From assembly GCA_965242615.1 (NCBI GenBank), contig CBDESR010000002.1, positions 4,035-68,034 on the forward strand: 64,000 nucleotides of DNA. Direction: 5' to 3'. The notes beneath the pieces were generated by a model. It searched no databases and had not been told where the DNA came from. It saw nothing but the letters and a program-made list of their open reading frames with translations. The stretch's first letter is position 1. Each line of letters starts with the position of its first letter. Origin of the DNA: Dehalococcoidia bacterium (GTDB lineage Bacteria > Chloroflexota > Dehalococcoidia > Lucifugimonadales > UBA3495). Below are positions 718-62,998 of the stretch, in pieces. The position numbers were made by a program, and so were the translations under genes.

Positions 718-1456
718 TTAGCCGCCGCCCCGCCGCCCCACCGCCAAACGCCGCGCCGCCAGCCGATCCTCCCCCCGCCGCAGCGCCGTCCGCTCCAGCA
801 GCAGATACAAAAACAGCAGCAGAAACACCCCCAGCGAAAAAAACAGAATGAACTGCATTATCGGCTCCAACGCCCCCGACTCCGCCAGCGGCCCCACCAC
901 CGCCGACGGGTGTATCGACCGCCACCACTGCACCGAATAATACACAATCGGCACATCCACAAACCCGACAATCCCCAACGCCGCCGCATAAACCGCCCCC
1001 TGCCGCCGGTTCGGCACATACGCCCGCAGCATCAAATACGCCACATAAATCAGCCACAAAATCAGCGTCGTCGTCAGCCGCGGCTCCCAAGTCCACCACA
1101 CCCCCCACACCGGCCGCGCCCAAATCGCCCCGGTCAGCACCGCCAGCGTAACAAACACCACCCCCACCTCGGCGGCCGCATTAGCCACCGCATCCCACGA
1201 ACCCTTGCGGGTAATCAGATAGCCAATGCTGGCCACAAACACCACAAAAAACGCCGCAAAGGACACGATGGCAATCGGCACATGGAAGTAAAAAATCCGC
1301 TGCACCTCCCCCCAACACCGCATCCGTCGGCGCGACCAGAAATATCAGATACAAGTTGACCAGCATCAAGACGCCGGTCAGGATTAGCAGTACGCCGGCC
1401 AATCCCGGGAAAGCGGCCCGCCGCCGGCCCGCCAAAATCTCTTGCCCCCTTGCCAA
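718..1456 (-). CDS. ccmC: cytochrome c biogenesis heme exporter protein C, split by an apparent +1 frameshift at the C6/G6 run 1308-1313
   Basis: Two overlapping ORFs (1181..1456 and 718..1323) join as ...LIFLVAPTDAVLGEVQRIFYFHVPIAIVSF... if one G is removed. The WGxxWxWD-type motif is present (VWGVWWTWEPRL). Confidence 0.85.
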
Positions 1457-1477
1457 ACCCGACTCCTCCTCTCCCCT

Positions 1478-2159
1478 TTATTCCTCGACCACAATGGAAA
1501 ACAGCCACGGACATATTACCAGAAACAGCAGGTCGAAAACCGCCAGCAGCAACAGCCAACGAATCACCCCGCCATCAAACAGCCCGCCGCCGTCCATCGC
1601 CCGCCCGGAAACCTCCACCGCCCCAATCAATACCGGCAGGATGACCGGAAAAAACAGCGCCGGCAGCATTATCTCCCGGGCCCGGGTCTGCACCGCAATA
1701 GCTGAAAACAGTACCCCCACCGTCGCAAACCCCAAAGTCGCCAGCAGCAACGCCAGCAGCAACAGCGGCGAAAAGGCCGCAAAATTCAGCAAGGCGGCGA
1801 ATACCGGCAGCAGTGCCGCCTCGATAATCAGCATAAACAGGAAACAGACCGCCGTCTTGCCCAGAAACACCGCATCCCGGCTCACCGGCGCCAGCAGCAA
1901 ACCCTCCAGCCCGCCCTGCTCCCGTTCCCGCGCAAACGCCCGGCTCATCGCCAACACCCCCGGCAAAGGCAAAGGCCGTCCACAGTACCCCCGGCGCCAA
2001 TTCCGCCGCCCGCTGCGGATTAACCCGCAAGGCAAAGTTAAACACCACCGCCACCAGCAGCCCGAACACCAGCGCGGCGACAACGATGTCCCGGGAGCGC
2101 AGTTCCAGCAGCAAGTCTTTCCACACCAACGCCGCCAGCGGCCGCCAAAACCCCATCAA
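1478..2159 (-). CDS. ccmB: heme exporter protein B, split by an apparent +1 frameshift at the C5 run 1967-1971
   Basis: The N-terminal ORF (MMGFWRPLAALVWKDLLLELRSRD...WTAFAFAG) and the C-terminal ORF (VLAMSRAFAREREQGGLEGLLLAP...) join perfectly if one base of the run is removed. Confidence 0.85.
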
Positions 2160-2162
2160 TCC

Positions 2163-2498
2163 CTAGCCCCCCGGCTGCTCCCCCGTCAACGGCTCCAGAA
2201 TATCCAGCAGCGTCTCCATCCGGTCCAAACCCCGGTCAATCGCCCCGGAATTCAGAAACCGCCGCCGCGTATAAAAGAACCCGTGCATCTCGTTAGCCCG
2301 CCCCCGCAAGTCATCCAACCGGGCATCGCCGGTCAACTCAGCGGCTTGGTACATCACCGTAAAAAACTGGTCATGCTTCTTATACTCCCACCCCTGCGCC
2401 TCGGCCACCGCCTTGGCCATCCACGCCGCCGCGCCCCAGCCCTTCTCCGCCGCCTGATGCCAGTCCCCCGCCGCCAGATACTCCCGCCCCTTGCTCAA
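2163..2498 (-). CDS. PaREP1-like (HEPN-fold) protein
   Basis: The motif GDWHQAAEKGWGAAAWMAKAVAEAQGW ... MHGFFY matches my memory of the PaREP1 family pattern (GD..QAsEKaWGAAA.avKA ... H.nFY). It is a paralog of 42444..43017. The start is TTG, and an N-terminal extension (ATG at 2623, other frame) is possible. Confidence 0.5.
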   Translation of the reverse strand: MSKGREYLAAGDWHQAAEKGWGAAAWMAKAVAEAQGWEYKKHDQFFTVMYQAAELTGDARLDDLRGRANEMHGFFYTRRRFLNSGAIDRGLDRMETLLDILEPLTGEQPGG

Positions 2499-2735
2499 AA
2501 AGCCCGGGCCTGCTGCCGGTAATCCGCCACCACCCCCTCCCCCCGGTCCGCCGCCGCGCCCTCCCCCGGATCAGCCATCACGCTCTCCCCCGGGGCATAC
2601 GGTTCCATTGGCGACATCTGCATTGCGCTGCCCTCCTTCCTTTCCTTGCCCGATAACCTACAACGCAGAATAACCCACCACCCCCACCCCCCGCAAGGGG
2701 GCAGCTGTCAGTCACCCCCTTCGCTCTCGAAATAC

Positions 2736-2765
2736 TTGACAGCCCTAGCCCAATACCAGTAAAGT
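2736..2765 (+). promoter_or_regulatory. candidate sigma70-type promoter of the methyltransferase gene
   Basis: TTGACA (2736-2741), an 18-nt spacer, then TAAAGT (2760-2765), about 45 nt upstream of the 2808 start. Confidence 0.35.
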
Positions 2766-2807
2766 CCCCCCATCCCGCCTAACTGGCCGCGCCGGAGTAG
2801 TATCAAC

Positions 2808-3817
2808 TTGAGCGATTACCAAAGCCGCAGCTACCTGTCGGTGGTTGAGGTAGCCAATCATACCGGGTTGCCCGTGCCGGAGATTCACCGGCTAGTGGCG
2901 GCCGGGGCTTTGCCGGCAGCCAAATCCGCCAGCGGCCAGTATCGCTTTGACCTGAAAGACATTGCCGCTTGGCAGCGCAATGGCAAAGGGAATGGGGCGG
3001 GCTGCGGAGAGCCGGCGTCCCAAAGGATTGCGGTCAACGGCGCTACCCAGCAGGTTATCGCCGGCGACGCCCGCAGTATGTCGGAAATCGCCGCCGCCAG
3101 TGTTCACTTGGTCATTACCCTCGCCGCCCTACTTCAACGCCAAAATGTATTCCGCCGAGCCGGATAGTGATTTGGGCAACATCCACGACCTGGAGGAATG
3201 GCTGCACCAAATCGGCTTGGTCTGGCAGGAAGTTTATCGGGTTTTGCAGCCGGGGCGCAAGTTCTTTCTCAACATAATGAACCTGCCCATCCGCGAGGGC
3301 AAATCCTTTCGCGCCCTGAACCTGGTCGGCCGGAACATTGACCGGTGCGAAAGTATCGGCTTTGTATTCAAGCGGGATATTGTCTGGCACAAGACCAATG
3401 GTGTGCGGGGCGCATTTCGGCACCTACCCCTATCCCGGCGGCATCCTCATCAACAATATGCACGAGTCCATCCTGGAGTTTGAGAAACCGACTACCCGGC
3501 CGGCGCAGAAGTATGCCCATCTCACCGCGCAGCAGAAAGCGGATTCCAAGCTGGACAAGGAGTTTTGGCTGTCGGTGAAAAACTCTGATGTGTGGTTGAT
3601 GAAACCGGAGAAAAGCGGCCGGCATCGCGACCACGCCGCCCCCTTTCCGGAGGAACTGCCGGCGCGGCTGCTGCGGGCTTACAGCTATATCGGGGAAACC
3701 GTCCTTGACCCCTTCGTCGGCTCCGGGACCACGCTGGTAGCGGCCGCCCGGCACGGACGGAATGGCATCGGCTACGACATCAACCCGGATTTTGCCGTAT
3801 GGCGGCGCAACACCTGA
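2808..3817 (+). CDS. HTH-fused beta-class DNA methyltransferase (N4-C/N6-A family, SPPY motif IV) with two apparent +1 frameshifts
   Basis: The N-terminus is an excisionase/MerR-type HTH (YLSVVEVANHTGLPVPEIHRLVAAGALPAAK..YRFDLKDIAAW). Motif IV is VHLVITSPPYFN once the C3 at about 3119 is corrected. Motif I, DPFVGSGTTLVAA, is C-terminal, so the order is IV...I (beta class). The frames 2808, 2962 and 3338 join at short C/G runs near 3119 and 3409. Confidence 0.85.
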
Positions 3818-3841
3818 AAGAGGTTTTGCTATGTCCCCGAA

Positions 3842-4360
3842 TCACAGCCCCTGCCCCGACAATGCCCAGCATCTCATATCGCTAAACGATGCTCGTCGGA
3901 TCTGCCGGTGGGAATCCCGCAACATTTCTATATAGGCGTACGTCCACGCCGCCGAGTATTCTTTGTCGCTAAGGGCTTCCAGTACCCTATTGGGACAAGG
4001 GCGAGTTCTGGAAATGAGATCCTCCGCCGGTACGATAACCCAATAAGGAGACGGGAAACTGATAGCAAGGGCATAGTAACCGTAGGGCGTTGCTGTCAGA
4101 GAGTCAAAATCGGCTTTGGTAAGTTGCCGCAACCGCGGCTGGGTAACTTCCGCCTCTACCTCAAACCGGAACTCTCGCCCTTCCCGAAAGGCAGTTATGT
4201 CGGGGTGACCCTGCTGGTTAACCTCGGTTACTTGATAGCCAAGCCGCAATAGCACGTGCGCCGCCAATCCTTGGACTTTGTAACCAAAATTCGCCCAAGT
4301 CAAGCTGGAGCGCATACTTTCAATGCACTCAATTGCAACCGTGTCAGTTTGGCTATTCAC
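3842..4360 (-). CDS. small PD-(D/E)xK-fold (Hjc/Mrr-like) putative nuclease
   Basis: 172 aa. Residues 25-71 read FGYKVQGLAAHVLLRLGYQVTEVNQQGHPDITAFREGREFRFEVEAEV, which has the alpha-beta-beta-beta pattern and PD...E-x-E of the restriction endonuclease fold. The GTG start is 1 nt after the ATPase stop. It lies tail-to-tail with the MTase, 25 nt apart. Confidence 0.5.
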   Translation of the reverse strand: MNSQTDTVAIECIESMRSSLTWANFGYKVQGLAAHVLLRLGYQVTEVNQQGHPDITAFREGREFRFEVEAEVTQPRLRQLTKADFDSLTATPYGYYALAISFPSPYWVIVPAEDLISRTRPCPNRVLEALSDKEYSAAWTYAYIEMLRDSHRQIRRASFSDMRCWALSGQGL

Positions 4361-4361
4361 C

Positions 4362-6455
4362 TTAGACCAACAGCTGCGGGCCGCCGTTGCGAGACCAGTT
4401 GGTGGGTTCTACGATGACATAGCTGGCCGGCTCAAAGTTCTCCGGCAACAACTTTCGGAATCGGTCGGTCTCTTGAGACGCGACGATAAGTTGCACGTTC
4501 TCCCCCAATTCGGCCAAACGCTGAACCAGTGTCTCGGTATGCTCTTCGTCGAATGCCCGAGTAGGGTCATCCAGCATAACCAAATACACTTCAGTGGGGG
4601 CTTCCTCGTTCTGGCTGAACGCGAAGTAAGGCGCAAGCTCTGCGGCTCTCTCCGCTTGCCCATTAAGAACTCCAATGGGTTCCTCGTCGGGAAACGGGTC
4701 TCGGCTGCTTGCTACTTTTAGTTGTAGCCTGGTCGGCGCATCCTTGGCGATAACCAGTCGGTCATACCAAGGATGGCGCGCCAGTGCATCGAAAGCGCGG
4801 GAAAGGTCGTCAGAAACACCGGGTTTGCCCGCCTCGAGACGTTCGCTCACATAGGTTTCGATTGCCCGGTGTATCTTCTTGACGGATTTACCGAAAGCAA
4901 CCAGGTCGTCGTGAGCTTCCTCGACCCGTCCCAAACGGCTTTCGGATTGTCGGAGTTCACTCAACTCCTTGTTTAACTGGTGCAACTTCTCCTCTTGCCT
5001 CAGGTTAAGCAGCCGCAATTTAAGGTCGTTAAACCATCCCTCTTGATCTCGTATCTGCGCCTCAAGGGAGGTCTTACGCTCGTTGAGCCGAGAATTGACC
5101 GCTTCAATCTGAGGCACGACAACCGGCTCCGGAAGCGCGTCAAAGTCTTCGCTGGTAAGCTCTTCATGCGCTTCTTTTGCCCGTTTAACCAGCTTATCCA
5201 GCTCCTCGGCAAGTCGCTGAATTTGACGGGTTAGTTCCTCGGCTTGATTGAGCCGAGACTGAAGTTGGGAAAGGGTTGAATCTACTTCTTCGGGCAACTG
5301 TGCGGATATGCGCCGCAACAGGGACTCCAAGCCCACCCGGCTATGTTCGGTTTCGCAAACAGGACATACCGCGATGTCGTCGTCACCACGGCTTACCAAA
5401 GAAACGGATTCATCGACAATCTTCCGCCTCAAGTCCAGAGTATCTTTCGCATCTTGAACTTGAGCAATATGGTTACGGAGTTCGTCAATGGAGCCACCCG
5501 ACAAAACCGCGTCGAGGCGCGATTGAGCCGCTTGCTTGGTGGCTTGATGCTCTTGTATGCCCGAGTGTATCTTTTGGAGTGCATCCAAGCGGGATATGCG
5601 TCCCTCGATATACTCCCGTTCCCTTTTGAGACCGACTTGGTCTTGGGAACGCTTGGCTTTTAGAGCATCGTCGGCATCTTCAATAAGAGCGTCCAGAGAC
5701 GCCCCTGACAGAGAATCGCCAGGCTGTTGACCGGTAATCTCTGTTATCAGATCCCGAACTTTGTTTTGGGATTCGACCGGAGTAGGAACGTTGGTGCTAC
5801 CCCAAGGAACCGCCTTCAATATACCGGCGCGTTGACCCGACAAATCGGCAATCTGATTCTTAATAACTGAGCGCACATCAGTTATTTGCTGCCCAAGGTC
5901 GTTTTCGACCCCTTCTTGTAAGAGAACAAAGTCGCTCAACTGCCTCGAAAAAGATTGGGGATTGGTAAGACCAAGGTGACGGAAAACGGTTCGCTCAAAG
6001 GGCAAAAGGTCTTCCGGTTGACGGTGTAAGGTGGTACCTTGAGGCGCAAAGATAATGTGCATCCCTTCGCCGGCGTCCGCAGACTCCAGTTGGGGCATAA
6101 TCTCCCCCACGGGACGCTCCCGACCATTGTCGTCAGTTAAAACCGCGTCGCTTCCGCCCCGGGCGCCCTGTAACAAGAGACGGTTAAGGTTCCATTGCCG
6201 ACCTTCGCGCAAAAGGTTTATCCCCACGCGGCACCGACCCGAGTAACCCCGATTAGCCACGACCTCATTCGGCCTGCGGGTAGAACCGAACAGTCCCCAG
6301 CGGATAGCCTCAATGATGCTGGACTTGCCATTGCCGTTCCGGCCCAAGAGAAAAGCGTGACGCCCTTCAAGTTTAATAACTTGGCGGGTAGTGAAACCCT
6401 TGAAACCTTCGATGGCAACGCTCTGGATACGGAAACCGACCGGCATTGAACTCAC
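4362..6455 (-). CDS. Rad50/SbcC/SMC-like ABC ATPase with coiled coil and CxxC zinc hook
   Basis: Walker A is LLGRNGNGKSSIIEAI. A long heptad-rich middle carries CPVCETEH near the midpoint. The C-terminal head has LNGQAE (a degenerate signature motif), Walker B VYLVMLDDP and D-loop AFD. The more likely start is the ATG at 6446 (GGAGG 8 nt upstream). Confidence 0.8.
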   Translation of the reverse strand: MSSMPVGFRIQSVAIEGFKGFTTRQVIKLEGRHAFLLGRNGNGKSSIIEAIRWGLFGSTRRPNEVVANRGYSGRCRVGINLLREGRQWNLNRLLLQGARGGSDAVLTDDNGRERPVGEIMPQLESADAGEGMHIIFAPQGTTLHRQPEDLLPFERTVFRHLGLTNPQSFSRQLSDFVLLQEGVENDLGQQITDVRSVIKNQIADLSGQRAGILKAVPWGSTNVPTPVESQNKVRDLITEITGQQPGDSLSGASLDALIEDADDALKAKRSQDQVGLKREREYIEGRISRLDALQKIHSGIQEHQATKQAAQSRLDAVLSGGSIDELRNHIAQVQDAKDTLDLRRKIVDESVSLVSRGDDDIAVCPVCETEHSRVGLESLLRRISAQLPEEVDSTLSQLQSRLNQAEELTRQIQRLAEELDKLVKRAKEAHEELTSEDFDALPEPVVVPQIEAVNSRLNERKTSLEAQIRDQEGWFNDLKLRLLNLRQEEKLHQLNKELSELRQSESRLGRVEEAHDDLVAFGKSVKKIHRAIETYVSERLEAGKPGVSDDLSRAFDALARHPWYDRLVIAKDAPTRLQLKVASSRDPFPDEEPIGVLNGQAERAAELAPYFAFSQNEEAPTEVYLVMLDDPTRAFDEEHTETLVQRLAELGENVQLIVASQETDRFRKLLPENFEPASYVIVEPTNWSRNGGPQLLV

Positions 6456-6862
6456 CTCCCCTCAGCGACTTGGCTGAGCAGACGCTTTACGCGTTCTTCA
6501 AAGCTCTGACTCTCTGTAGCCAAGTGTTCCCTGGCCGCTTCGGGTCCCGCCCTGTCGTACTCTTGAGCTACAGCTAACCACAGAGTACGAGCGTCATCCT
6601 CATCCGACGAGAACAACTTCCCGACGGCCGCGATGAATTCGATAGGTTGTTCTTCGGGCATAAGCCCCCGCAAAGCAGGATGTTCGACGAAATAGATTGC
6701 AGTATCGCAAGCCGCCAATATAGTAACACGCTTTAGTTTAACCGTCAACTCCTTAAAGAATGGATTCTGTGATACGCCGGTTAGCCGCCACCACCTCCGG
6801 TCCCTTCTCAAAACCCTGAAAACCGCATCCCGCCCGGCCGCCACTATCCCCCGGCTCCCCAA
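6452..6862 (-). CDS. hypothetical small protein, first gene of the ATPase operon (start uncertain)
   Basis: The ORF stop TGA (6454-6452) is 5 nt from the ATPase ATG. The upstream third is GC-rich and lies upstream of a promoter-like site, so the real start may be the ATG at 6661 (69 aa, MPEEQPIEFIAAVGK...). I recognise no domain. Confidence 0.4.
   Translation of the reverse strand: MGSRGIVAAGRDAVFRVLRRDRRWWRLTGVSQNPFFKELTVKLKRVTILAACDTAIYFVEHPALRGLMPEEQPIEFIAAVGKLFSSDEDDARTLWLAVAQEYDRAGPEAAREHLATESQSFEERVKRLLSQVAEGR
6720..6748 (-). promoter_or_regulatory. candidate promoter of the small-protein/ATPase/nuclease operon
   Basis: On the minus strand: TTGACG (6748-6743), a 17-nt spacer, then TACTAT (6725-6720). 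It sits at the GC-content break of the island. Confidence 0.4.
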
Positions 6863-6887
6863 AAAAACGCGCCAACAGCCTTAATCG

Positions 6888-7037
6888 CAGCTCGTTTCCG
6901 GTTCCATCGCGGTTTGATTTCAGTTCCATCGCAGCTAGTTTTCAGTTCCATCGCGGTTTGATTTCAGTTCCATCGCAGCTAGTTTTCAGTTCCATCGCGC
7001 CTTGTTCCCGGTTCCATCGCAGCTCGTTATATCCCCC
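6888..7037. repeat. array of about 6.8 tandem 22-bp units (44-bp super-period) ending in GTTCCATCG
   Basis: Units run at 6888-6909, 6910-6931, 6932-6953, 6954-6975, 6976-6997 and 6998-7019, plus a partial unit. They alternate cggtttgatttcagttccatcg and cagctagttttcagttccatcg. The array is homologous to the inverted array at 61419..61577. Confidence 0.9.
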
Positions 7038-7196
7038 GGCCCCGATCCGCCGCCCCCAACTTCTGCTCCGCCCTTGGAAATCTGGCGCCGGCCGCCAAAA
7101 GCAAACGGAACCCGGCCGCCATTAACATTTTCCCGCCGGCCGATTTGTGCTACTATAGCTCTTTACTCCAATCCCACTATTGAAAGGGCTGCGGGC

Positions 7197-8876
7197 ATGG
7201 CTACGGCGCTGATTCGGGACACAATACAGGAACTGGTGGCGGCGGCGCTGACCCGCGCCCAGCAGGAAAAGGTTTTCCAGTTGGAAACAATGCCGGACAT
7301 CCTGATGGAACGGCCGGCTAACCCGGCTAACGGCGATTTTGCCACCAGCCTGCCGCTGCGCCTGGCCCGGGCTACCCGCATCAACCCCTTGAAACTGGCC
7401 GAAACCCTGGTGGAATACATCGCCGCCGCCCCGGAAGTGGAACGGGTAGCCGCCGCTCCGCCGGGATTCATCAATTTCTACCTTAACGACGGCTGGATTC
7501 AGCAGCAGGTCGAGACGGTGCGGCAAGCCGCCGCCGACTACGGCACGGTGGACGCCGGCCAGGGCCGCCGGGTGATGGTCGAGTTCGTCAGCGTCAATCC
7601 CACCGGCCCGGTTCATGTCGGCCATACCCGCGGTGCCGTGCTGGGCAGCGCATTGGCTAATACCTTGGCCGCCGCCGGCTATGCCGTTACCCGGGAATAC
7701 TATGTCAATGACGCCGGCACTCAGATGGATGCCTTTTATCGCTCCGTCTATGCCCGCTACCGGGAGGCTTTGGGGCAGGAGTCGGATTTTCCCGCCAATG
7801 GCTATGCCGGGGAGTATATAGCCGACTTGGCCCGGGAAATCGCCGCCGCCGAAGGCGGCCGCTTTCTGGAAATGGCGGAAGCTCAAGCCGTCAAGGAAAT
7901 CGGCGACATCAGCCGGGAAAAGATGGTTGCCCTGATCCGGGACGACCTGGCGCAGATTGGCGTAACTTTTGATAACTGGTTCAGTGAACGCTCCCTTTAC
8001 GCCAACCGGGAGTATGACGCGGCCATGGATTTGCTGCGGGCCAACCACTACCTTTCCGAAAGGGAAAACGCCTTGTGGTTCAACTCTACCTTGTTGGGGG
8101 ATGACAAGGACAATGTAGTGGTGCGCTCCAGCGGCGAACCTACCTACTTTGCCGCCGACATTGCCTATCACTACAACAAGTTTGTCGGGCGGGGCTTTGA
8201 GCAGGTTATTGACATCTGGGGGGCGGACCACCAGGGCCATGTGCCGCGGATGAAAGCCGCCGTCGCCGCTATGGGCTTGGCTCCGGAGCATTTGACGGTG
8301 CTGATTTCCCAGATGGTTACGCTGAAACGGGGTTCGGAAGTGGTGCGGGCGTCCAAGCGCACCGGCGATTTCATCACCCTGCGGGAACTGGCGGACGAGG
8401 TGGGCGTTGATGCCTGCCGCTACTTTTTCCTGGCCCGGACGCCCGCGACCCAAATGGAGTTTGACCTGGAACTGGCGAAAAAGGAATCGTCGGAAAACCC
8501 GGTTTATTACATTCAGTACGCCCACGCCCGCAATGGCAGCATCTTGAACCTGGCGCGCGAGCGGGGTATTGACTGGAGCGGCGGCGCGGTGTCCCTGCTA
8601 ACCGACCCCAATGAACTAAACCTGATTCGGACGATGTTGCGGCTGCCGGAACTGGTGGACCAGATGGCGCGCAGTCTGGAACCGCATCATTTGCCGCATT
8701 ACGCTATGGAACTGGCTACCGCCTTTCACTGGTTCTACGAAAACTGCCGGGTCATTTCGGCTAACGCCGAGGACAATGCCCTGACTTTGGCCCGCCTGAA
8801 ACTGGTAGAGTCGGCGCAAATCGTTTTCCGGCGGGCCTTGGAGCTGATGGGGATGTCGGCCCCGGAACGGATGTAG
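7197..8876 (+). CDS. argS: arginine--tRNA ligase
   Basis: Full-length class I aaRS signature: SVNPTGPVHVGHTRGAVLG (HIGH-type) and a C-terminal anticodon-binding domain. The ATG at 7197 (MATALIRDTIQELV) is chosen over the upstream in-frame extension, which reads through the repeat array. Confidence 0.9.
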   Translation: MATALIRDTIQELVAAALTRAQQEKVFQLETMPDILMERPANPANGDFATSLPLRLARATRINPLKLAETLVEYIAAAPEVERVAAAPPGFINFYLNDGWIQQQVETVRQAAADYGTVDAGQGRRVMVEFVSVNPTGPVHVGHTRGAVLGSALANTLAAAGYAVTREYYVNDAGTQMDAFYRSVYARYREALGQESDFPANGYAGEYIADLAREIAAAEGGRFLEMAEAQAVKEIGDISREKMVALIRDDLAQIGVTFDNWFSERSLYANREYDAAMDLLRANHYLSERENALWFNSTLLGDDKDNVVVRSSGEPTYFAADIAYHYNKFVGRGFEQVIDIWGADHQGHVPRMKAAVAAMGLAPEHLTVLISQMVTLKRGSEVVRASKRTGDFITLRELADEVGVDACRYFFLARTPATQMEFDLELAKKESSENPVYYIQYAHARNGSILNLARERGIDWSGGAVSLLTDPNELNLIRTMLRLPELVDQMARSLEPHHLPHYAMELATAFHWFYENCRVISANAEDNALTLARLKLVESAQIVFRRALELMGMSAPERM

Positions 8877-8965
8877 AGCAAGCGCCTCCCGAATTCCCCC
8901 CGGCGTTCGGAATACCAGCGGCGGTTGACTGCCGAATTGTAATTTACTTCAGACTGCTCCGCGCT

Positions 8966-9003
8966 AAAGGGGCGGCGGTTCACAACCCGCCGCCCCTTTT
9001 TGT
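8966..9003. terminator. bidirectional intrinsic terminator hairpin between convergent argS and the ABC exporter
   Basis: aaaggggcggcgg-ttcacaa-cccgccgcccctttttg: a GC-rich 11-13 bp stem flanked by A and T runs. Confidence 0.6.
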
Positions 9004-9038
9004 TCAGGCAGTTGGTAAGCGGCGGCGGCAGCGCCTAA

Positions 9039-10962
9039 TCAGTTATCTGCCGGGGCTGGCGACAGGTTGGGAACGCTGACGGGTTCCGCGCCGTTGTTGG
9101 CTTCGTGAGCCAAGCCGTAGTTGATGGCGTAGAGCCGGGCATAAACGCCGTTGCGCCGCAGCAGTTCCTCATGGCGGCCGGTTTCCACAATGCGCCCCTG
9201 GTCCAGCACCACGATTTTATCGGCGCTGCGGATAGTCGAAAGCCGGTGGGCAATGACGATGGAAGTGCGCCCTTCCAGGACATGGCTCAAGGCTTCCTGA
9301 ATCAGGATTTCGGTATGGGTGTCAATGTTGGCCGTGGCTTCGTCGAGAATGATAATGCGCGGGTCGCCGACGATGGCCCGGGCAAAGCTGATTAGCTGCC
9401 GCTGCCCCACGCTCAGGTTGACGCCGCGCTCGGCCAGCACCGTATCGTAGCCATCCTCCAACGCCATAATAAAGTCGTGCGCCCCTACCGCCTTGGCGGC
9501 GGCGATTACATCCTCGTCCGTGGCGTTGTCGTAGCAGTAGCGGATATTTTCCTTGACATTGCCGGAAAAAAGGTAGGGTTCCTGCAAGACCATACTCATC
9601 TGCCCCACCAGAGAGCGGCGGGTAACGGAACGCAGGTCGTAGCCGTCAATGGTAATGCGGCCCTGGGTTACATCGGCAAAGCGATGGGCCAGCGTTACCA
9701 AAGTGCTTTTCCCGGCTCCAGTGGAACCGACCAGAGCCACATTCTCCCCGGGGCGGATGTGCAGGTTAATATCCTGCAACACTTCCACGCCCTCGACATA
9801 GTGGAAATGGACGCCTTCGTAGCGGATTTCCCCGCGCACCGGCGGCATTGCCACCGCATCCGGGGCATCCTTGACCTCCGGCTCCAGGTCAATCAGCTCA
9901 AAGATACGGACGCCGGCCGCCATTGACCGCTGAAAGATGCCGTACTGCATCGTCAAGTGGCGGATGGGTTCAAAGAAACGCTGAATCCAGACGGCGAATG
10001 CCACTAGTACGCCCCACTCCAGGTTGTCGCCCCGCACCAGCAGGCCGCCGACCAGTACCACGCCAAAGCCCATCCCGACGCCAATCAGGAACTCGACCAT
10101 CGGCTGCAAGCCGCCGGAGAAGCGGCTGGCTTGCAAGTTGGCGTCGAGGTGTTCCCGGTTCAGTTCCTCGAAGTGCCGCAGGTTTTCATCCTGCCGGTTC
10201 AGGCTTTGCACTACCCGGATGCCGGTAATGTTCTGGTTGTATTCGCCGTTGACCATCGCGATAGCCCGGCGAATCCGCATAAAGGAACGGCGGGCAAACC
10301 GCTGCCAGTAAGCCAGGATAAAGAACAGCACCGGGACAATGCTGAGGCTGACCAATGCCAACTGCCAGTCCACAATCAGCATATAGATGATGATGAACCC
10401 CAGGGTCACCACATCGGCCAATGCCAACACCAGCATCTCAAAGGTTTCCTGAAGCTGCAAAACATCGCTCTGACTGCGGGACATTATGCGGCCCACGGCG
10501 GTGCGGTGGTAAAAGGCCGGGGAAAGGTTTTGCAGATGGCTGAACATATGGGTACGCAGGGCGTACAGGATACTCTGCCCCACCCGGGCCATAAAGACGA
10601 ACTGGAGATAGTTGGCCCCGAAGTGAATCAGGGTAACGGCCAGGAAAGCCAGTCCCATCAAGTGCAGGCGCGACACATCCCCGGTATTGATGCCCTGGTT
10701 GATACCCAGCATAATCAGCCAGGGGATACTGGCGTTGGCAATGGTATAGACCAGCACCGCCGCCAGGCTTTTGGCTACATCCGCCTTGAAGGGGCCCCAT
10801 ATAGGAGATGAGGCGGACGACTACCTTGTTGTTATAAGCCGCGCCCAGCTCGTTGTCGTCGCTGAGGTTGTCGAGGTTTACCGAGCGGATGCCGCCGGAC
10901 TGCAAGCCGCGCATACCGCCCATCATTCCGCCGAAACCGCCGCCAAAGCCGCCGCCGCGCAT
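9039..10962 (-). CDS. ABC exporter permease/ATP-binding protein (MsbA/MdlB-like) with an apparent +1 frameshift at 10801-10808
   Basis: Six-TM exporter domain plus an NBD with GSTGAGKST, LSVGQRQ and IIILDEAT. The Gly-rich N-terminus (MRGGGFGGGFGG...VVVRLISYMGP) joins FKADVAKSLAAVLVYTI if one base of GGGGCCCC is removed. The start overlaps the upstream gene's stop (ATGA). Confidence 0.85.
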
Positions 10963-19337: not shown

Positions 19338-19412
19338 TGGAGCGGGCGATGGGATTCGAACCCACGACTCTTTGCTTGGGAAGCAAATACTCTACCACTG
19401 AGTTACGCCCGC
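19338..19412 (-). tRNA. tRNA-Gly (anticodon CCC), CCA encoded
   Basis: Reverse complement: GCGGGCG-TA-ACTC-AGTGGTA-GAGT-A-TTTGC-TTCCCAA-GCAAA-GAGTC-GTGGG-TTCGAAT-CCCAT-CGCCCGC-T-CCA. This gives a full cloverleaf with anticodon loop TT-CCC-AA. Confidence 0.9.
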
Positions 19413-49781: not shown

Positions 49782-49988
49782 TCACGCATGGTATCCTCGC
49801 GTCTTGCTCTGTCCCCGCTCAATCCGCAACGCACGGGACCGGGTTTTAGCCCGACCGTCCACTGTCAGATTGCCTCCGCCCCGCGCTCGCCGGTGTTCCG
49901 CCTGCCGCCGCGCCGGGTTGTTGGTAATCCCCCGGTGGGAAACCCGGCGGCCGACCCGGAAAGTATAGTTGTAGGTACTCCGCGCCAT
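49782..49988 (-). CDS. small GIY-YIG-like protein
   Basis: AAGGAGG lies 7 nt upstream of the ATG at 49988. YNYTFRVGRRVSHRGITNNPARRQAEH ... ALRIERG fits the GIY-(8-11)-YIG..R..H...E pattern of UPF0213-type proteins. Confidence 0.4.
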   Translation of the reverse strand: MARSTYNYTFRVGRRVSHRGITNNPARRQAEHRRARGGGNLTVDGRAKTRSRALRIERGQSKTRGYHA

Positions 49989-50004
49989 CGGTATCCCCTC
50001 CTTA

Positions 50005-50919
50005 CTAACCACATTCCTTAGAAACTTCGCTTGAAGTACTCTTTTTACTCCCCTGGGAATTCTGCTCCAGCCAATCCTTTAGCAGATTGCCAAGACCCGA
50101 AAGAGTCTTCTGAAAATCCTCCCTAAACTTCTTTTCTTCCGGTAGCTCGACCTGTCGAGTTTCATAAATAAACGCATCCACTACCTGATCCAGGAGAATG
50201 GCGGTCAACATCGTGATGTGTTGGACGCCCTTATCAGATGGTTCGACAGCAGGGATCTCGTCCTGTTTCAACTCGACACTAGGACGCTTTATCATGCTGA
50301 GAGCAGATGCGTGAACCGATTTACTAGCCAGTTGATAATCCCGGCAGTAGAGGTCAAGCATTCCGGCCAATTTAGCCCGGTTTTTCATACGTCGGGCAGG
50401 CTTCGCTTTTATCCACCCATCTGCCTGAGTAATCTCCTTGCCGTACGTGTTTTCCAAGAGGCTCAAGGCGGCATCGAGTTCGCCGAAACCAACCGAACTC
50501 GTTTCCAAATCCATAGCGATTTCCCGTTCGTGGTAGTGAAACTCAGCCAGCGAATAATCCAAGTACCGCTCCGCCGTTTTATCCGGGTCGTCGCTGTTAA
50601 GTATGTCTGACAAAACCACAGCTATGTTGAACAAAGTCCGCCAACTTTCATAGGCGGCGTCCGCATAGCCATGCCACAGGAGGCAAGAGATTGCCCCTGA
50701 GGTGTACCAAGCTCTTTGAGCCAAGAAGGAGCCAGCTATTAGGTACGATTCGGTCTTGGAATCCTTGCTCTCCTCTACTTCAGACAGAGCTTGCTCCCAA
50801 GCATACTTATCGTGTAGCTTGATCCTCACAAGGGCTATCTGGTTGAGAATGTCCAGTTCGCGTAGCATCTCGCCGTGTGCTTCCGATACTTTTACGAACA
50901 TTTCCAACCTTGCTTGCAT
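50005..50919 (-). CDS. hypothetical protein in a low-GC island
   Basis: A 304-aa clean ORF with GC visibly lower than its flanks. I cannot assign a domain with confidence; it vaguely recalls DUF5677-type helical proteins, from memory only. Confidence 0.5.
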   Translation of the reverse strand: MQARLEMFVKVSEAHGEMLRELDILNQIALVRIKLHDKYAWEQALSEVEESKDSKTESYLIAGSFLAQRAWYTSGAISCLLWHGYADAAYESWRTLFNIAVVLSDILNSDDPDKTAERYLDYSLAEFHYHEREIAMDLETSSVGFGELDAALSLLENTYGKEITQADGWIKAKPARRMKNRAKLAGMLDLYCRDYQLASKSVHASALSMIKRPSVELKQDEIPAVEPSDKGVQHITMLTAILLDQVVDAFIYETRQVELPEEKKFREDFQKTLSGLGNLLKDWLEQNSQGSKKSTSSEVSKECG

Positions 50920-56736: not shown

Positions 56737-58542
56737 CTAGTCCGCGAACATACGGTTGGGCTTGATTTCCTTTTCCCACCGTTCCTTGGCCCAAGCCATT
56801 CGGCGGCGGAAAGTTGCTTTTTGCTCCTCGAGTCGCGCTTGGGTAGGTATCCGGCCCCTTTCATAAGCCAGGTCAATGGCCTGCTCCGGGGTCAGGCGAT
56901 TGCTTTTGTCCCCGTTGCAGTCAATACAAGCCAATGCCCGGTTCCAGCAGTCATCGTTGGAGCCGTCCCGCTGGTTGGGTTCCACATGGTCGAGCTGCAA
57001 AACGCGGCGGGAGTTATCCTGCGTCCGCCCGCAATACCAGCAGTCCGTCCCCCATTCCGCAACGAAAGCGTCCCAAATCTGGTCTTTGGTTTCCTCCGGT
57101 TGGGTGCGATACTTGGGGTCAGCCCGATGAATAACCCCTTTCATCACGGCTTGGGCTTCGGATTCCACCGGCTCCGGCAAATCCAGAGGGCCGCGCACTT
57201 TGATCAGTTTGCCGAGTAGCTGGAGTTCGGCAAACAAATCCGGGTTGTCGGCGTCGGGCGGCAGCTCGCCTTCGGTCTGGACGCCCAAATCCGGGTGTTT
57301 GTGAAACTGGCGGCGGATAACGGTCCAAGCCCGCGGCGACATATCGCAGGCAATCCACCGACGGCCGGTCAGTTGGGCGGCCACCGGGACATAGGCGCAG
57401 CCGGCAAAGCAGTCCAGAACAATGCCATCGGGCGGGCAGCTGGCCTCAATGATGCGCTGGGCCAAAGTTTGCGGCTTCTGGGTAGGGTAGCCGACGTACT
57501 CCCGGCCGCTTACCGGGTCAATATCATCCCACAGGCTGCCGGCGGTAGTCCCCCGCCAATCATCCTCGTACTTGCGGCGTTGGAGTCGCCCGCCGGGCAG
57601 GATGACAATGTTGCCTTTGCGGTATTCCTCCTCGAGACGCTCCCTTTCCAGACGCCAGCCGCTGGGATGGGGATTGGTAAAGGTATAACCTTCCTTTTCC
57701 CAAGAATAGCAAAGGTTGGGCCTAGCTCCCATATTTGGAGAACTCCAAATATGGGAGCTATCGTTGTAGTACCGGCGTCCATTTTCGTCGACGCGATTAA
57801 ATTTTTTTTCGCGTTCCTGCGGAGTCAGCGGCCGCCAAGGCTCTACGGTGGCTTGCCGGGACTTGGCATAGAAAAGAATGGTATCCAAGGTATTGCCCCA
57901 AGACTTGGGGGTGTGCTGGGAACCGCGTTGGGTAGAGGTATGGCGTTCCCAAATGATTTCATTACGGAAGTTGGCTTTGCCAAAGACCGCGTCCATCATT
58001 TGACGCAGATAGCCGTTGGCTTCGTTATCGCAGTGCAGGTACACGCTGCCGGTGGGTTTCAGTATCCGCTTGATTTGGAACATCCGCTCGGCCATAAAGG
58101 CGATGTAGGCGGCGATGCCGTCGTTCTGGGTATAACGAATGGATTTAATCAGGAAATCCAAGCCGGGGTTGACCAGTTCCAGCTGCTCAATCCAACCGGC
58201 ATAGACATGGCGGCTGAAGTTCCAGATTTCCTCGAATTTAGCGGTGGTACCCTCTTGGTCGGGCCATTCCAAGCCGGCCTCGTAGGCGCTGTCCGGGTCA
58301 GTAACCCCCCAGCTTTGCAGCAGTTCTTTCTCGATGCGGAGTTCGTCTTTGGACAGGGGCTTGACCAGGGTGCCGACAAAGGTTTGCTTTTTGCCAAAGG
58401 GCGGGTCAATGCAAACCAAGTCGATGCTTTCCGACGGGATAGCCTTGAGAAAGGGCAGGTTGTCGCAGATGAAAACCGTACTGGTCAAGTCGTCGATGTT
58501 GACTGCGTTGACGGCCACCGGTTCCTCCTTGCTGCGGGCCAA
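56737..58542 (-). CDS. DNA methyltransferase (N6_N4 family, DPPF) fused to a C-terminal HNH nuclease domain
   Basis: Motif IV DLVCIDPPFGK. GSVYLHCD. Motif I VLDCFAGCAYVPVAA. The C-terminal CWYCG...LQLDHVEPNQRDGSNDDCWNRALACIDCNGDKSN has the CxxC...H...N...CxxC HNH pattern. Confidence 0.8.
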   Translation of the reverse strand: MARSKEEPVAVNAVNIDDLTSTVFICDNLPFLKAIPSESIDLVCIDPPFGKKQTFVGTLVKPLSKDELRIEKELLQSWGVTDPDSAYEAGLEWPDQEGTTAKFEEIWNFSRHVYAGWIEQLELVNPGLDFLIKSIRYTQNDGIAAYIAFMAERMFQIKRILKPTGSVYLHCDNEANGYLRQMMDAVFGKANFRNEIIWERHTSTQRGSQHTPKSWGNTLDTILFYAKSRQATVEPWRPLTPQEREKKFNRVDENGRRYYNDSSHIWSSPNMGARPNLCYSWEKEGYTFTNPHPSGWRLERERLEEEYRKGNIVILPGGRLQRRKYEDDWRGTTAGSLWDDIDPVSGREYVGYPTQKPQTLAQRIIEASCPPDGIVLDCFAGCAYVPVAAQLTGRRWIACDMSPRAWTVIRRQFHKHPDLGVQTEGELPPDADNPDLFAELQLLGKLIKVRGPLDLPEPVESEAQAVMKGVIHRADPKYRTQPEETKDQIWDAFVAEWGTDCWYCGRTQDNSRRVLQLDHVEPNQRDGSNDDCWNRALACIDCNGDKSNRLTPEQAIDLAYERGRIPTQARLEEQKATFRRRMAWAKERWEKEIKPNRMFAD

Positions 58543-59894: not shown

Positions 59895-60128
59895 TGACGC
59901 GGCCGCTCCTTGAGGTTGGGGGTATAGTATCGCATTTGGCGGCGGATAAGGCAAATGGGGGCGGTGGAGGGGCGACAGTGAAATCCAGCCCAAATAAAGA
60001 CTGGCCCCTAGCCGCCGCGGCGGCCGGCGCCCCATTAAGGGGACCGTTCGGGACCAGCCTGTAGGGGTATATTATCCGCCGGCAAAGGGGCGGGTGTCAA
60101 GGGGCGGGTGTCAAGGGATTGCGTTCCG

Positions 60129-61418: not shown

Positions 61419-61577
61419 GGGGGATATAACGAGGCGCGATGGAACTGATAACTAACTGCGATGGAACCGGAAACAAGGTGCGGTGGAACTGATAACTAAC
61501 TGCGATGGAACCGGAAACAAGGTGCGGTGGAACTGATAACTAACTGCGAAGGAACTGGAAACAAGGTGCGATTAAGG
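61419..61577. repeat. array of six tandem 22-bp units (inverted homolog of 6888..7037)
   Basis: Units run at 61437-58, 61459-80, 61481-502, 61503-24, 61525-46 and 61547-68. They alternate cg(a/g)tggaactgataactaactg and cgatggaaccggaaacaaggtg. The flanks gggggatataacgagg and cgattaagg are shared with array 1. Confidence 0.9.
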
Positions 61578-61653: not shown

Positions 61654-61843
61654 CGGGAGGTTGGGAAGGACGGTGGGGGAGCCAATGGGTATATAGGCGA
61701 TAGGAATGAGGTTGGCGGCGGCCGGGGCGTAGATATACCGGGCGAGGCGTGTTAGAATTAGCGGAAAGTTCGGGAAAATCGTCCGGGGAGGATTAACGAT
61801 GACGGCCTTGAGCAACGGCGCAACTAACGGGACGACCCAACGG

Positions 61844-62998
61844 ATGAAGTTCGGGGTTTTTATGGCGCCCTTTCACCGGCCGGGGGAGAACCCGACCCTG
61901 GCCCTGGAGCGGGATTTGGAACTGCTGCAATGGCTGGATTTGCTGGGCTTTGACGCAGCCTATATCGGCGAACACCACAGCGCGGGCTGGGAAACTATCG
62001 CCTCCCCGGAGGTGTTTATCGCCACGGCGGCGGAGCGCACCCGCAACATCCGCCTGGGTACCGGGGTCATCAGCCTGCCCTATCACCATCCCTTGATGGT
62101 GGCGAACCGGATGGTGCTGCTGGATCATCTGACCAAGGGGCGGGTTATCCTGGGCGTCGGCCCGGGCGCGTTGGCTTCGGACGCTTTGATGTTGGGCATC
62201 AACCCGGCGCGGCAGCGGGAAATGATGGACGAGTCTTTGGGCATCATCCTGCGGCTGTTCAACGAAACGGAGCCGCTGTCCTACAAGAGCGACTGGTTCG
62301 AGTTGAACGAGGCGGTGCTGCAACTGCGGCCCTACCAGCGGCCGCACTTGCCGGTGGCGGTGGCGTCGGTGCAGTCGCCGGCCGGGGTCAGCTTGGCCGG
62401 CAAGCACGGGGCGGCGGTGCTGTCGATGAGCATCCCCCGGGATACGGTGCGGGCGACCAGTCTCAAGGAACTGTGGTCGATTGCCGAGGATGCTGCGGCG
62501 GAACACGGCAAGACGGTGCATCGGGAGGATTGGGGCTTGGTAGTGGGCTGCCATCTGGCGGAAAGCAAGAAAGAGGCGATGGAGGATATTCGGGTCGGCG
62601 GGGGCCGGCTGATTACCGAGTATTTCGGCAATACCCTGGGCAACGAAACGCCGCCGGTGCCGGCGGAGCAAATCGTGGACTATATGGTGGAGCATAACCA
62701 GTGGATTGTCGGCACGCCGGACGACTGCATTGCCGGCATTGAGCGGTTGCAGGAAATCAGCGGCGGCTTTGGCAGCTTTATGATTCGGGTCGAGGATTGG
62801 GCGCCGCGGCACAAGGTACTGCACAGCTACGAACTGCTGGCGCGTTATGTAATGCCGCGGTTCCAGGGCAGCCTGGACGGGATTATGGCGTCGAACCAGT
62901 GGGCGGCGGAACGGCGGATTGCGCTGCAAGAGAATCGGGTTACCGGGCTGCGGGCTGCGACCGATTCCTACTTTGCCGGCCGGGAATCGGGTCGCTAG
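61844..62998 (+). CDS. LLM-class flavin-dependent oxidoreductase (luciferase-like monooxygenase)
   Basis: MKFGVFMAPFH ... LGFDAAYIGEHHS ... TIM-barrel pattern. Confidence 0.85.
   Translation: MKFGVFMAPFHRPGENPTLALERDLELLQWLDLLGFDAAYIGEHHSAGWETIASPEVFIATAAERTRNIRLGTGVISLPYHHPLMVANRMVLLDHLTKGRVILGVGPGALASDALMLGINPARQREMMDESLGIILRLFNETEPLSYKSDWFELNEAVLQLRPYQRPHLPVAVASVQSPAGVSLAGKHGAAVLSMSIPRDTVRATSLKELWSIAEDAAAEHGKTVHREDWGLVVGCHLAESKKEAMEDIRVGGGRLITEYFGNTLGNETPPVPAEQIVDYMVEHNQWIVGTPDDCIAGIERLQEISGGFGSFMIRVEDWAPRHKVLHSYELLARYVMPRFQGSLDGIMASNQWAAERRIALQENRVTGLRAATDSYFAGRESGR

Follow-up and report, generated by a model that had tools for sequence, protein, structure and literature searches.

Within a 64,000-nucleotide (nt) stretch of contig CBDESR010000002.1 from a Dehalococcoidia bacterium (the window), we analysed a trio of minus-strand genes whose predicted products are a small acidic protein, an SMC/Rad50-like ATPase with a zinc hook, and a small PD-(D/E)xK nuclease. 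The trio is a conserved unit and a horizontally mobile, compositionally foreign cassette, and it matches no catalogued system in the libraries searched. It is an uncatalogued Lamassu-like or SbcCD-like variant and not a methyltransferase-dependent restriction system. As to its function, the balance tips slightly towards defence, by a module that would resemble Lamassu, derive from SbcCD and have a minimal effector.

The three genes are tightly coupled over positions 3842-6661 of the window, in the order small gene, ATPase gene, nuclease gene:

6452-6661, minus strand: 69-residue acidic three-helix protein, isoelectric point (pI) about 4.5, from the homologue alignment and an AlphaFold2 (AF2) model with a predicted local distance difference test (pLDDT) score of 79
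4362-6446, minus strand: 694-residue SMC/Rad50-like ABC ATPase (697 residues if begun at the GTG at 6455), from Pfam SMC_N (2.4e-15) and AAA_23
3842-4360, minus strand: 172-residue PD-(D/E)xK nuclease with an Hjc/RecU-like core, from an AF2 model (pLDDT 89.4), Foldseek and alignment A1

The TGA of the small gene (6452-6454) stands 5 nt before the ATPase ATG at 6446, and the ATPase TAA (4362-4364) stands 1 nt before the GTG at 4360 that opens the 172-residue open reading frame (ORF). This coupling and both gaps had been described in an earlier sequence-only reading of the window, and the coordinates are confirmed here. The G+C content (GC) of the trio is 54.1% versus 60.5% for the window and 62% and 60% for the two flanks, and the trio is the lowest-GC 2.8-kb stretch of the 64-kb window, about 3.5 standard deviations under the mean. 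The low-GC island originally drawn here also took in a neighbouring DNA methyltransferase gene; the dip is real over the trio, but the methyltransferase gene, at 59.3%, is host-like and lies outside it.

Judged from its motifs and profile matches, the 694-residue protein is an SMC/Rad50-like zinc-hook ABC ATPase, with a Walker A motif, a Q-loop, a mid-protein hook (CPVCExxH), an LNGQ variant of the signature, a Walker B motif (LDD) and a D-loop. The four segments on which the ATPase was first recognised (GRNGNGKSS, CPVCETEH, LNGQAE and LVMLDDP) are all present, and their key residues are invariant among homologues. Positions invariant in the family alignment (A2) comprise Walker A GxNGxGKSS, Q139, the hook residues C364-x-x-C367 and H371, D636, the V-L-N-G-Q segment that replaces LSGG, and Walker B L-D-D-P-T (LVMLDD; D629 and D630). 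The two halves of the ATPase head are kept apart by a coiled coil of about 380 residues by our boundaries, in place of the 450 or so proposed earlier, with the zinc hook CxxC(+H) at its apex.

The best match of the ATPase in any library is the PADLOC LmuB model PDLC03859 (2.3e-27), with the best stretch covering residues 187-688; this model matches all 29 family members tested, modestly, with a best E-value of 2.5e-29. A PHROG SbcC-like family is also matched (1.5e-19, 71 bits), and the ATPase family profile finds archaeal Rad50 heads as its best matches in the PDB, and SMC heads too. Two further models, PtuA and GajA, give weak matches to the N-terminal P-loop region (about 50 residues). Scores against the NCBIfam sbcc model (26.8 bits; cut-off 478.5), the Rad50 model PRK03918 (39.8 bits; cut-off 700) and the NCBIfam SMC models are all far under the cut-offs. 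No Mre11/SbcD metallophosphoesterase is encoded in the operon, where the sole partners of the ATPase are the 69-residue protein and the PD-(D/E)xK nuclease.

From its predicted structure, the 172-residue protein is confidently modelled as a PD-(D/E)xK fold of the Hjc/RecU-like type. The AF2 model has the topology H-H-E-E-E-H-E-E followed by four short helices; the core spans approximately residues 1-111, and a short linker joins it to C-terminal helices at residues 124-167. Invariant positions in alignment A1 are H52-P53-D54 and E67-x-E69. Both marks of a PD-(D/E)xK core, an alpha-beta-beta-beta-alpha-beta fold and acidic residues at the start of strand 2 and in strand 3 (here PD54 and E67-x-E69), are found. 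The segments GHPDITAF and FRFEVEAEV, from which an Hjc/Mrr-like core had been proposed, are present with their key residues invariant among homologues, and structure prediction and Foldseek bear the proposal out. A Glu replaces the canonical Lys of the (D/E)-x-K motif, which we take to be a BamHI-like variant.

Leading Foldseek matches to this protein in the PDB are RecU/PrfA, Hjc, Hje, I-Ssp6803I and PvuII, all of them PD-(D/E)xK proteins, with probabilities mostly of 0.9-1.0 (0.96-1.0 for nine of the ten best matches, to RecU, Hjc and Hje), TM-scores of 0.4-0.58 and E-values of only about 1e-2. Small phage proteins are found in BFVD (to E 5e-4), some of them named PD-(D/E)xK nuclease or Holliday junction resolvase. 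At the sequence level, Pfam Hjc is weakly matched by 7 of 32 nuclease family members, the family profile finds nothing among PDB sequences, and the source names of six family members include one label only, from the Joint Genome Institute (JGI), reading 'Holliday junction resolvase'. An exhaustive profile search recovered relatives of at most 191 residues, all stand-alone and none fused to a larger LmuA-like body, and by this search the family is closed. None of the loci examined has the nuclease without the ATPase, and it is therefore not a stand-alone restriction enzyme of the PvuII type; the sequence-only reading had likened its size and its pairing with a methyltransferase to type IIP restriction-modification (R-M) systems.

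These assignments introduce a rival account in which the trio is a repair or recombination complex, a functional SbcCD/Mre11-Rad50 analogue whose Hjc-like structure-specific nuclease replaces the Mre11 phosphoesterase and acts on hairpins, stalled forks or junctions in the chromosome of the host. The closest folds of the nuclease being Holliday junction resolvases, the Rad50 heads among the best PDB matches of the ATPase profile and the 71-bit match to the PHROG SbcC-like family are what such a complex would lead one to expect; the sbcc and Rad50 scores (26.8 bits against 478, and 40 against 700) and an operon without an Mre11/SbcD gene are not. We judge this account unlikely, and return to it with the distribution of the cassette.

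The small gene had been given a 136-residue ORF from a TTG start, which we correct to the 69-residue version from the ATG at 6661. The longer frame spans the operon's own promoter-like site, and the homologues, of 63-80 residues, start at the equivalent ATG; we therefore take the product to be 69 residues and rejected the TTG ORF as the small gene. The homologues share a conserved core, R.LW.P.A..F.R.GP.AA..YL.AE.Q.L, and nearly all have a pI of about 4.2-6.3. Wherever sequence upstream of the ATPase gene is available, the distant clade included, it encodes such a small, acidic and helical protein. The three-helix AF2 model finds no Foldseek match, and neither the 69-residue nor the 172-residue protein has a significant match in Pfam, NCBIfam (June 2026), PADLOC or PHROG. 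Since the two small partners match no existing model, the earlier description of the locus as an undescribed minimal Lamassu-like variant remains a fair one; the R-M combination that was attached to it is not a family trait.

Conservation of the trio was assessed over a set of 51 related loci, which come from metagenome-assembled genomes of Dehalococcoidia, Latescibacterota and Binatia and from unassigned metagenome contigs; the scan of the genome collection used narrow peptide patterns and gives no prevalence. No trio gene is missing where the contig covers its position, and the order small protein, ATPase, nuclease is constant, even at 24-28% ATPase identity. The ATPase-nuclease pair is found in 50 of the 51 loci, the other being a contig (L043) that ends before the nuclease. 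When neighbouring ORFs were clustered, only the three trio families were recurrent. The gene-neighbourhood comparison proposed with the sequence-only reading thus finds linkage and order kept throughout, mostly without a methyltransferase. In larger protein collections the ATPase family forms 347 clusters among 5.8 billion proteins, and the nuclease family 106 clusters (at 50% identity) among 1.84 billion.

All three genes are under purifying selection, with ratios of nonsynonymous to synonymous substitution rates (dN/dS) of 0.07-0.25 overall: 0.07-0.16 for the small gene, 0.10-0.16 for the nuclease gene, and 0.23-0.25 for the ATPase gene, whose heads (0-0.08) are far more constrained than its coiled coil (0.30). 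The GC of the cassette stays at about 46-59% across hosts of 40-65% GC; of 27 loci compared, 24 have a cassette poorer in GC than its flanks, and the three low-GC hosts have one that is richer. Synteny breaks at both edges of a 4.1-kb block that holds the trio and the methyltransferase gene. Beyond this block, the related locus L002 matches the window on the argS flank only and L003 on the ccm flank only.

Several related loci show further rearrangement. L027 holds tandem trio copies (1397-4210 and 6796-9610) that share 87.6% of their nucleotides along 3,035 nt and are separated by four small ORFs. In the Latescibacterota locus L005, an 853-nt IS5-like transposase remnant (10083-10935), a frameshifted DDE transposase on the opposite strand, lies between the ATPase and nuclease genes. 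In L003, where synteny with the window ends, a phage portal gene (PF04860, 3e-69) and a 620-residue ORF with weak P-loop matches only, possibly a terminase, both within 935-4091, stand some 4-7 kb away from the block; other foreign genes also lie beyond the break, and the gene content suggests that this breakpoint carries a prophage remnant.

For a repair complex, the patchy and rare distribution over unrelated phyla at about 50% identity is hard to accommodate, as are a cassette GC independent of the host, the synteny breaks, the tandem duplicate and the disruption by an insertion sequence. The strongly constrained head motifs of the ATPase and the predominance of housekeeping and metabolic neighbours sit well with repair. 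Mobility, rarity and the occasional R-M or defence neighbour lead us to favour defence over repair, and the resolvase-like nuclease fold and mostly ordinary neighbours keep repair a serious rival.

The remaining features of the 4.1-kb block and its edges are as follows:

2732-6877, strand not applicable: block common to the window, L002 and L003, comprising the methyltransferase gene and the trio, 4.1 kb, 93-94% nucleotide identity (blastn)
2808-3817, plus strand: helix-turn-helix HTH_17 (Pfam, 3e-10) and N6_N4 beta-class DNA methyltransferase (SPPY ... FVGSGTT; N6_N4_Mtase, 3e-25 and 5e-10)
2736-2765, plus strand: promoter-like TTGACA-18-TAAAGT upstream of the methyltransferase gene, at the left edge of the block, a consensus match only
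6720-6748, minus strand: promoter-like TTGACG-17-TACTAT assigned to the trio operon, its -10 preceded by TG, kept in L003
6884-7028, strand not applicable: array of 6.6 copies, period 22 bp and super-period 44 bp, separating the trio operon from argS, at the right edge of the block

The methyltransferase bears on a second rival, an ATPase-coupled R-M system in which the HTH methyltransferase protects the host and the ATPase and nuclease restrict unmethylated DNA, at least in this Dehalococcoidia lineage. The sequence-only reading had proposed that the locus combines R-M and Lamassu logic in this way. Its beta-class methyltransferase with an N-terminal HTH does contain the HTH_17 and N6_N4_Mtase domains, but it has no single open frame in the window and a different stop. 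The gene is spread over three frames by +C at 3118, +G at 3407 and -T at 3789, each relative to both the L002 and L003 orthologues and each in a homopolymer run; the orthologues are single intact ORFs of 341 residues, 93-95% identical to the window. The orthologous stop TGA reads TGT here, and the repaired frame therefore extends to the TAA at 3883-3885, giving 358 residues. Single-nucleotide indels, mostly in G/C runs, likewise break CcmC (1308), CcmB (1957), two ABC transporters (10795 and 12507) and an amino-acid permease (13020 and 13444), by comparison with intact L002 or L003 orthologues, so that about 12 kb of coding sequence contains nine frame breaks in total, and several of the genes hit look indispensable. 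Because the same kind of indel hits housekeeping genes nearby, the breaks in the methyltransferase gene are probably long-read assembly errors; we dropped a true pseudogene as an explanation on the same grounds, and the likely artefact is therefore unusable as biological evidence in either direction. Homopolymer indels in this assembly can mimic pseudogenes, and apparent pseudogenes in the window are not to be trusted.

Several observations are compatible with such R-M coupling. The methyltransferase gene and the trio stay together as one 4.1-kb block across three combinations of flanks, they converge tail-to-tail (7 nt apart in L002), and the methyltransferase gene is under purifying selection between L002 and L003 (dN/dS 0.087). 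An N-terminal HTH such as its HTH_17 domain occurs in self-regulating R-M methyltransferases. A few further loci (L029, L044 and L021) encode a DNA methyltransferase no more than four genes away from the trio; the one in L029 is a homologue of the window's enzyme, 4.7 kb upstream of the trio with four genes intervening. Weighing more heavily on the other side, a homologous methyltransferase adjoins the trio nowhere but in the window and its two relatives of 93-95% identity, L002 and L003, and is absent from the remaining 35 or so non-redundant loci, where the trio is evidently maintained without a linked methyltransferase. The GC values differ (59.3% versus 54.1%), and the window's methyltransferase frame is broken three times, though probably by artefact. 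On the evidence of these loci the methyltransferase is a local, lineage-specific neighbour and not a required part of the cassette; the R-M coupling is at most a local association in one Dehalococcoidia lineage, and we hold an ATPase-coupled R-M system to be improbable.

In L029, whose distant trio has an ATPase of 34% identity, the trio lies downstream of a same-strand gene run (772-9125) encoding N6_N4 methyltransferase, HATPase_c_3, Methyltransf_35 and PDDEXK_4 proteins and a 238-residue protein without an assignment. From its gene content, this run may form a modification-dependent system of its own, next to the cassette.

The promoter-like site TTGACG-17-TACTAT, which falls within the discarded 136-residue TTG ORF, is present as first described and kept in L003; promoter-like sites overall are no commoner in the window than in shuffled sequence. 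The 22-bp array said to bound the island is likewise present at 6884-7028, where it is shorter in L003 (its copy number varies in both L002 and L003), but it is not island-specific, because an equivalent array lies at 61436-61560 (plus strand). We accordingly rejected it as an island boundary or att-like site. The unit of the second array is GCGATGGAACYGRAA plus 7 nt, and both arrays have the same conserved ends, GGGGGATATAACGAG ... GCGATTAAGGCTG. The repeat pattern has 13 matches in the window versus 0.6 expected, and the arrays are a dispersed intergenic repeat family. The second array is intergenic, upstream of a gene (61799-62998) that we take to encode a luciferase-like monooxygenase. An Rfam scan found no match in or near the island, and therefore no riboswitch or T-box upstream of argS.

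Our preferred reading, a Lamassu-like defence module descended from SbcCD, predicts that the ATPase dimerises via its zinc hook and that ATP-driven engagement of the heads recognises DNA ends or abnormal DNA, candidate targets being hairpins, branched DNA, and the intermediates that invading elements form in replication or recombination. The nuclease would be held or licensed through its helical tail, and the small protein, encoded upstream of the ATPase in the position of LmuC or of the SbcD C-terminal domain, would act as an adaptor or inhibitor. Sensing would then lead to activation of the nuclease and cutting of the DNA. The data establish the gene content, order and coupling, the conserved motifs, the nuclease's fold class, mobility and foreign composition, purifying selection and absence from the libraries searched; complex formation, DNA sensing, control of the nuclease and the defence role itself are what we infer.

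A more specific proposal, to which we give a little less than even weight, is that the trio constitutes an undescribed, methylation-independent immune or surveillance system in which a Rad50/long-LmuB-like ATPase would directly control a minimal Hjc-like resolvase via a tiny acidic adaptor. Such a system would be a compact SbcCD-Lamassu intermediate, carried as a 2.8-kb cassette among uncultured phyla, and may sense branched or hairpin intermediates of replication in preference to plain DNA ends.

A number of observations weigh against the defence reading. The ATPase is absent from the plasmid and phage collections and the nuclease from the plasmid collection (tblastn), and the ATPase profile found no match among viral contigs. 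The defence-island signal is modest, because the neighbours of the trio are mostly metabolic or housekeeping genes; the minority with R-M or defence functions includes type III Res/Mod (L044), a 920-residue N6 methyltransferase and GmrSD_C (L021), and, as further defence-like neighbours, DUF4238 and AAA_15/21 proteins. Catalysis by the nuclease is only presumed, because its sequence has E-x-E in place of (D/E)-x-K, and the combination of a Rad50-like partner and an Hjc-like fold is just as well suited to repair. The likeness to Lamassu itself is partial: the LmuB match reaches 94.5 bits only, no PADLOC LmuA or LmuC model is matched at E <= 0.1, the gene order is small-ATPase-nuclease in the cassette versus LmuA-LmuC-LmuB, and no LmuB- or Ddm-named chain occurs among the 60 listed of 75 PDB matches to the ATPase profile (E <= 10).

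The last three of these features argue at the same time against the cassette being an ordinary member of a catalogued Lamassu subtype that the libraries used fail to recognise. Such a subtype would explain why LmuB is the best match for every ATPase family member, and it could draw on the great diversity of Lamassu effectors and middle components, classed as CTD1-12 and MC1-8 (bioRxiv 10.1101/2025.03.14.643221). Besides the gene order and the missing LmuA, LmuC and PDB matches, no NCBIfam (June 2026) or Pfam family covers the two small partners, the nuclease family is closed at no more than 191 residues with no LmuA-like fusion, and the small protein, at 63-80 residues, looks much smaller than LmuC. 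We regard membership of a known subtype as very improbable, marginally more so than the R-M coupling.

Should the cassette prove to work in defence or surveillance, no smaller SMC-type sensor-effector system would be known: its total is about 2.8 kb and 935 residues. The evolutionary series from SbcCD to Lamassu that was proposed in 2025 would then gain a third gene arrangement. With an effector that is a near-bare catalytic core plus a short tail, the licensing of a nuclease by a zinc-hook ATPase could be tested simply, and the cassette would be a defence candidate for lineages (Dehalococcoidia, Latescibacterota and Binatia) whose defence systems seem little charted.

Elsewhere in the window, a 111-residue PaREP1/PaREP8 family protein (2163-2498, minus strand; 1.4e-9) is encoded directly left of the 4.1-kb block; the family is archaeal according to Pfam, yet occurs here in an apparent Dehalococcoidia genome. 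A second low-GC islet (49% over 1 kb) holds a gene for a 304-residue DUF5677 protein (50005-50919, minus strand; Pfam 1.4e-15) adjoined by a 76-residue basic ORF of no family (49782-50012, minus strand), and sits among housekeeping-looking genes beside an amidophosphoribosyltransferase-like ORF. A 601-residue fusion protein (56737-58542, minus strand) joins an N6_N4 DNA methyltransferase (6e-33) to an HNH endonuclease domain at the C terminus (1.7e-5) and may, from its domains, be a single-chain modification-restriction enzyme. The Rfam motif DUF3800-IX RNA is found at 59994-60060 (minus strand; 48.7 bits, gathering score 36.8), and tRNA-Gly(CCC) at 19338-19412 is the sole tRNA in the window.

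Among known systems, MADS was considered because of partial matches to mad1 (HTH, 4e-8), mad3 (P-loop, 6e-10) and mad8 (6e-7) and because of the L029 neighbourhood. MADS is an eight-gene system whose detection model requires MAD6-8 (bioRxiv 10.1101/2023.03.30.534895). We rejected it, as the matches are weak and partial, the mandatory genes are absent, and there are four genes and not eight. The SPPY HTH methyltransferase placed tail-to-tail with a small PD-(D/E)xK protein resembles a type IIP R-M (PvuII-like) locus, but across the family the nuclease is linked to the ATPase and not to a methyltransferase. PARIS (AriA/AriB), Septu and retron PtuA/PtuB, and Gabija (GajA) share the pairing of an ABC/SMC-type ATPase with a small nuclease, and the general logic of an ATPase sensor that holds or licenses it; their ATPases lack a long zinc-hook coiled coil, their nucleases are TOPRIM or HNH, and the P-loop region alone (about 50 residues) matches.

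SbcCD/Mre11-Rad50 is closer in architecture. As in that complex, a nuclease shares its operon with an ABC ATPase that has a coiled coil and a zinc hook, archaeal Rad50 heads are the best PDB matches and an SbcC-like PHROG is matched; the helical tail of the nuclease could act as the Rad50-binding domain of Mre11 does. The cassette differs in that its nuclease is PD-(D/E)xK and not a calcineurin-like phosphoesterase, its coiled coil is much shorter and its signature is LNGQ and not LSGG. The classical Rad50/SbcC Walker B is hhhhDE, whereas that of the cassette ends in DD. The ATPase falls far under the curated SbcC/Rad50 cut-offs, and the cassette is rare and mobile, not core.

Lamassu (DdmABC; ABC-3C), above all its long, Rad50-like subfamily, provides the nearest overall parallel. 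LmuA typically has about 350-400 residues and LmuC about 150-250, whereas the cassette effector has 172 and the small protein 63-80; no effector gene precedes the small gene, and the ATPase, at 694 residues, is longer than short LmuB (about 600) and shorter than long LmuB (about 800). We liken the logic of the cassette to that of Lamassu and SbcCD but do not file it as a member, because its effector lies 3' of the ATPase gene, is far smaller, and comes without a sequence match to the LmuA or LmuC models searched. The resemblance is nonetheless extensive: three components are built around a coiled-coil zinc-hook ABC ATPase for which PADLOC LmuB is the best match, the nuclease domain is followed by a helical C-terminal region in an arrangement analogous to LmuA, whose enzymatic domain is N-terminal and whose conserved docking domain (CTD1-12) is C-terminal, and the whole is an accessory module spread horizontally. 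The ATPase also has what is reported of long LmuB, a single CxxC and a Walker B of the form hhhhDD (PMC12663957). Two 2025 studies derive Lamassu from SbcCD/Mre11-Rad50, with the middle component, encoded just upstream of the ATPase, descending from the C-terminal part of SbcD/Mre11 (PMC12663957; bioRxiv 10.1101/2025.03.14.643221), and it is directly upstream of the ATPase that the cassette encodes its small protein.

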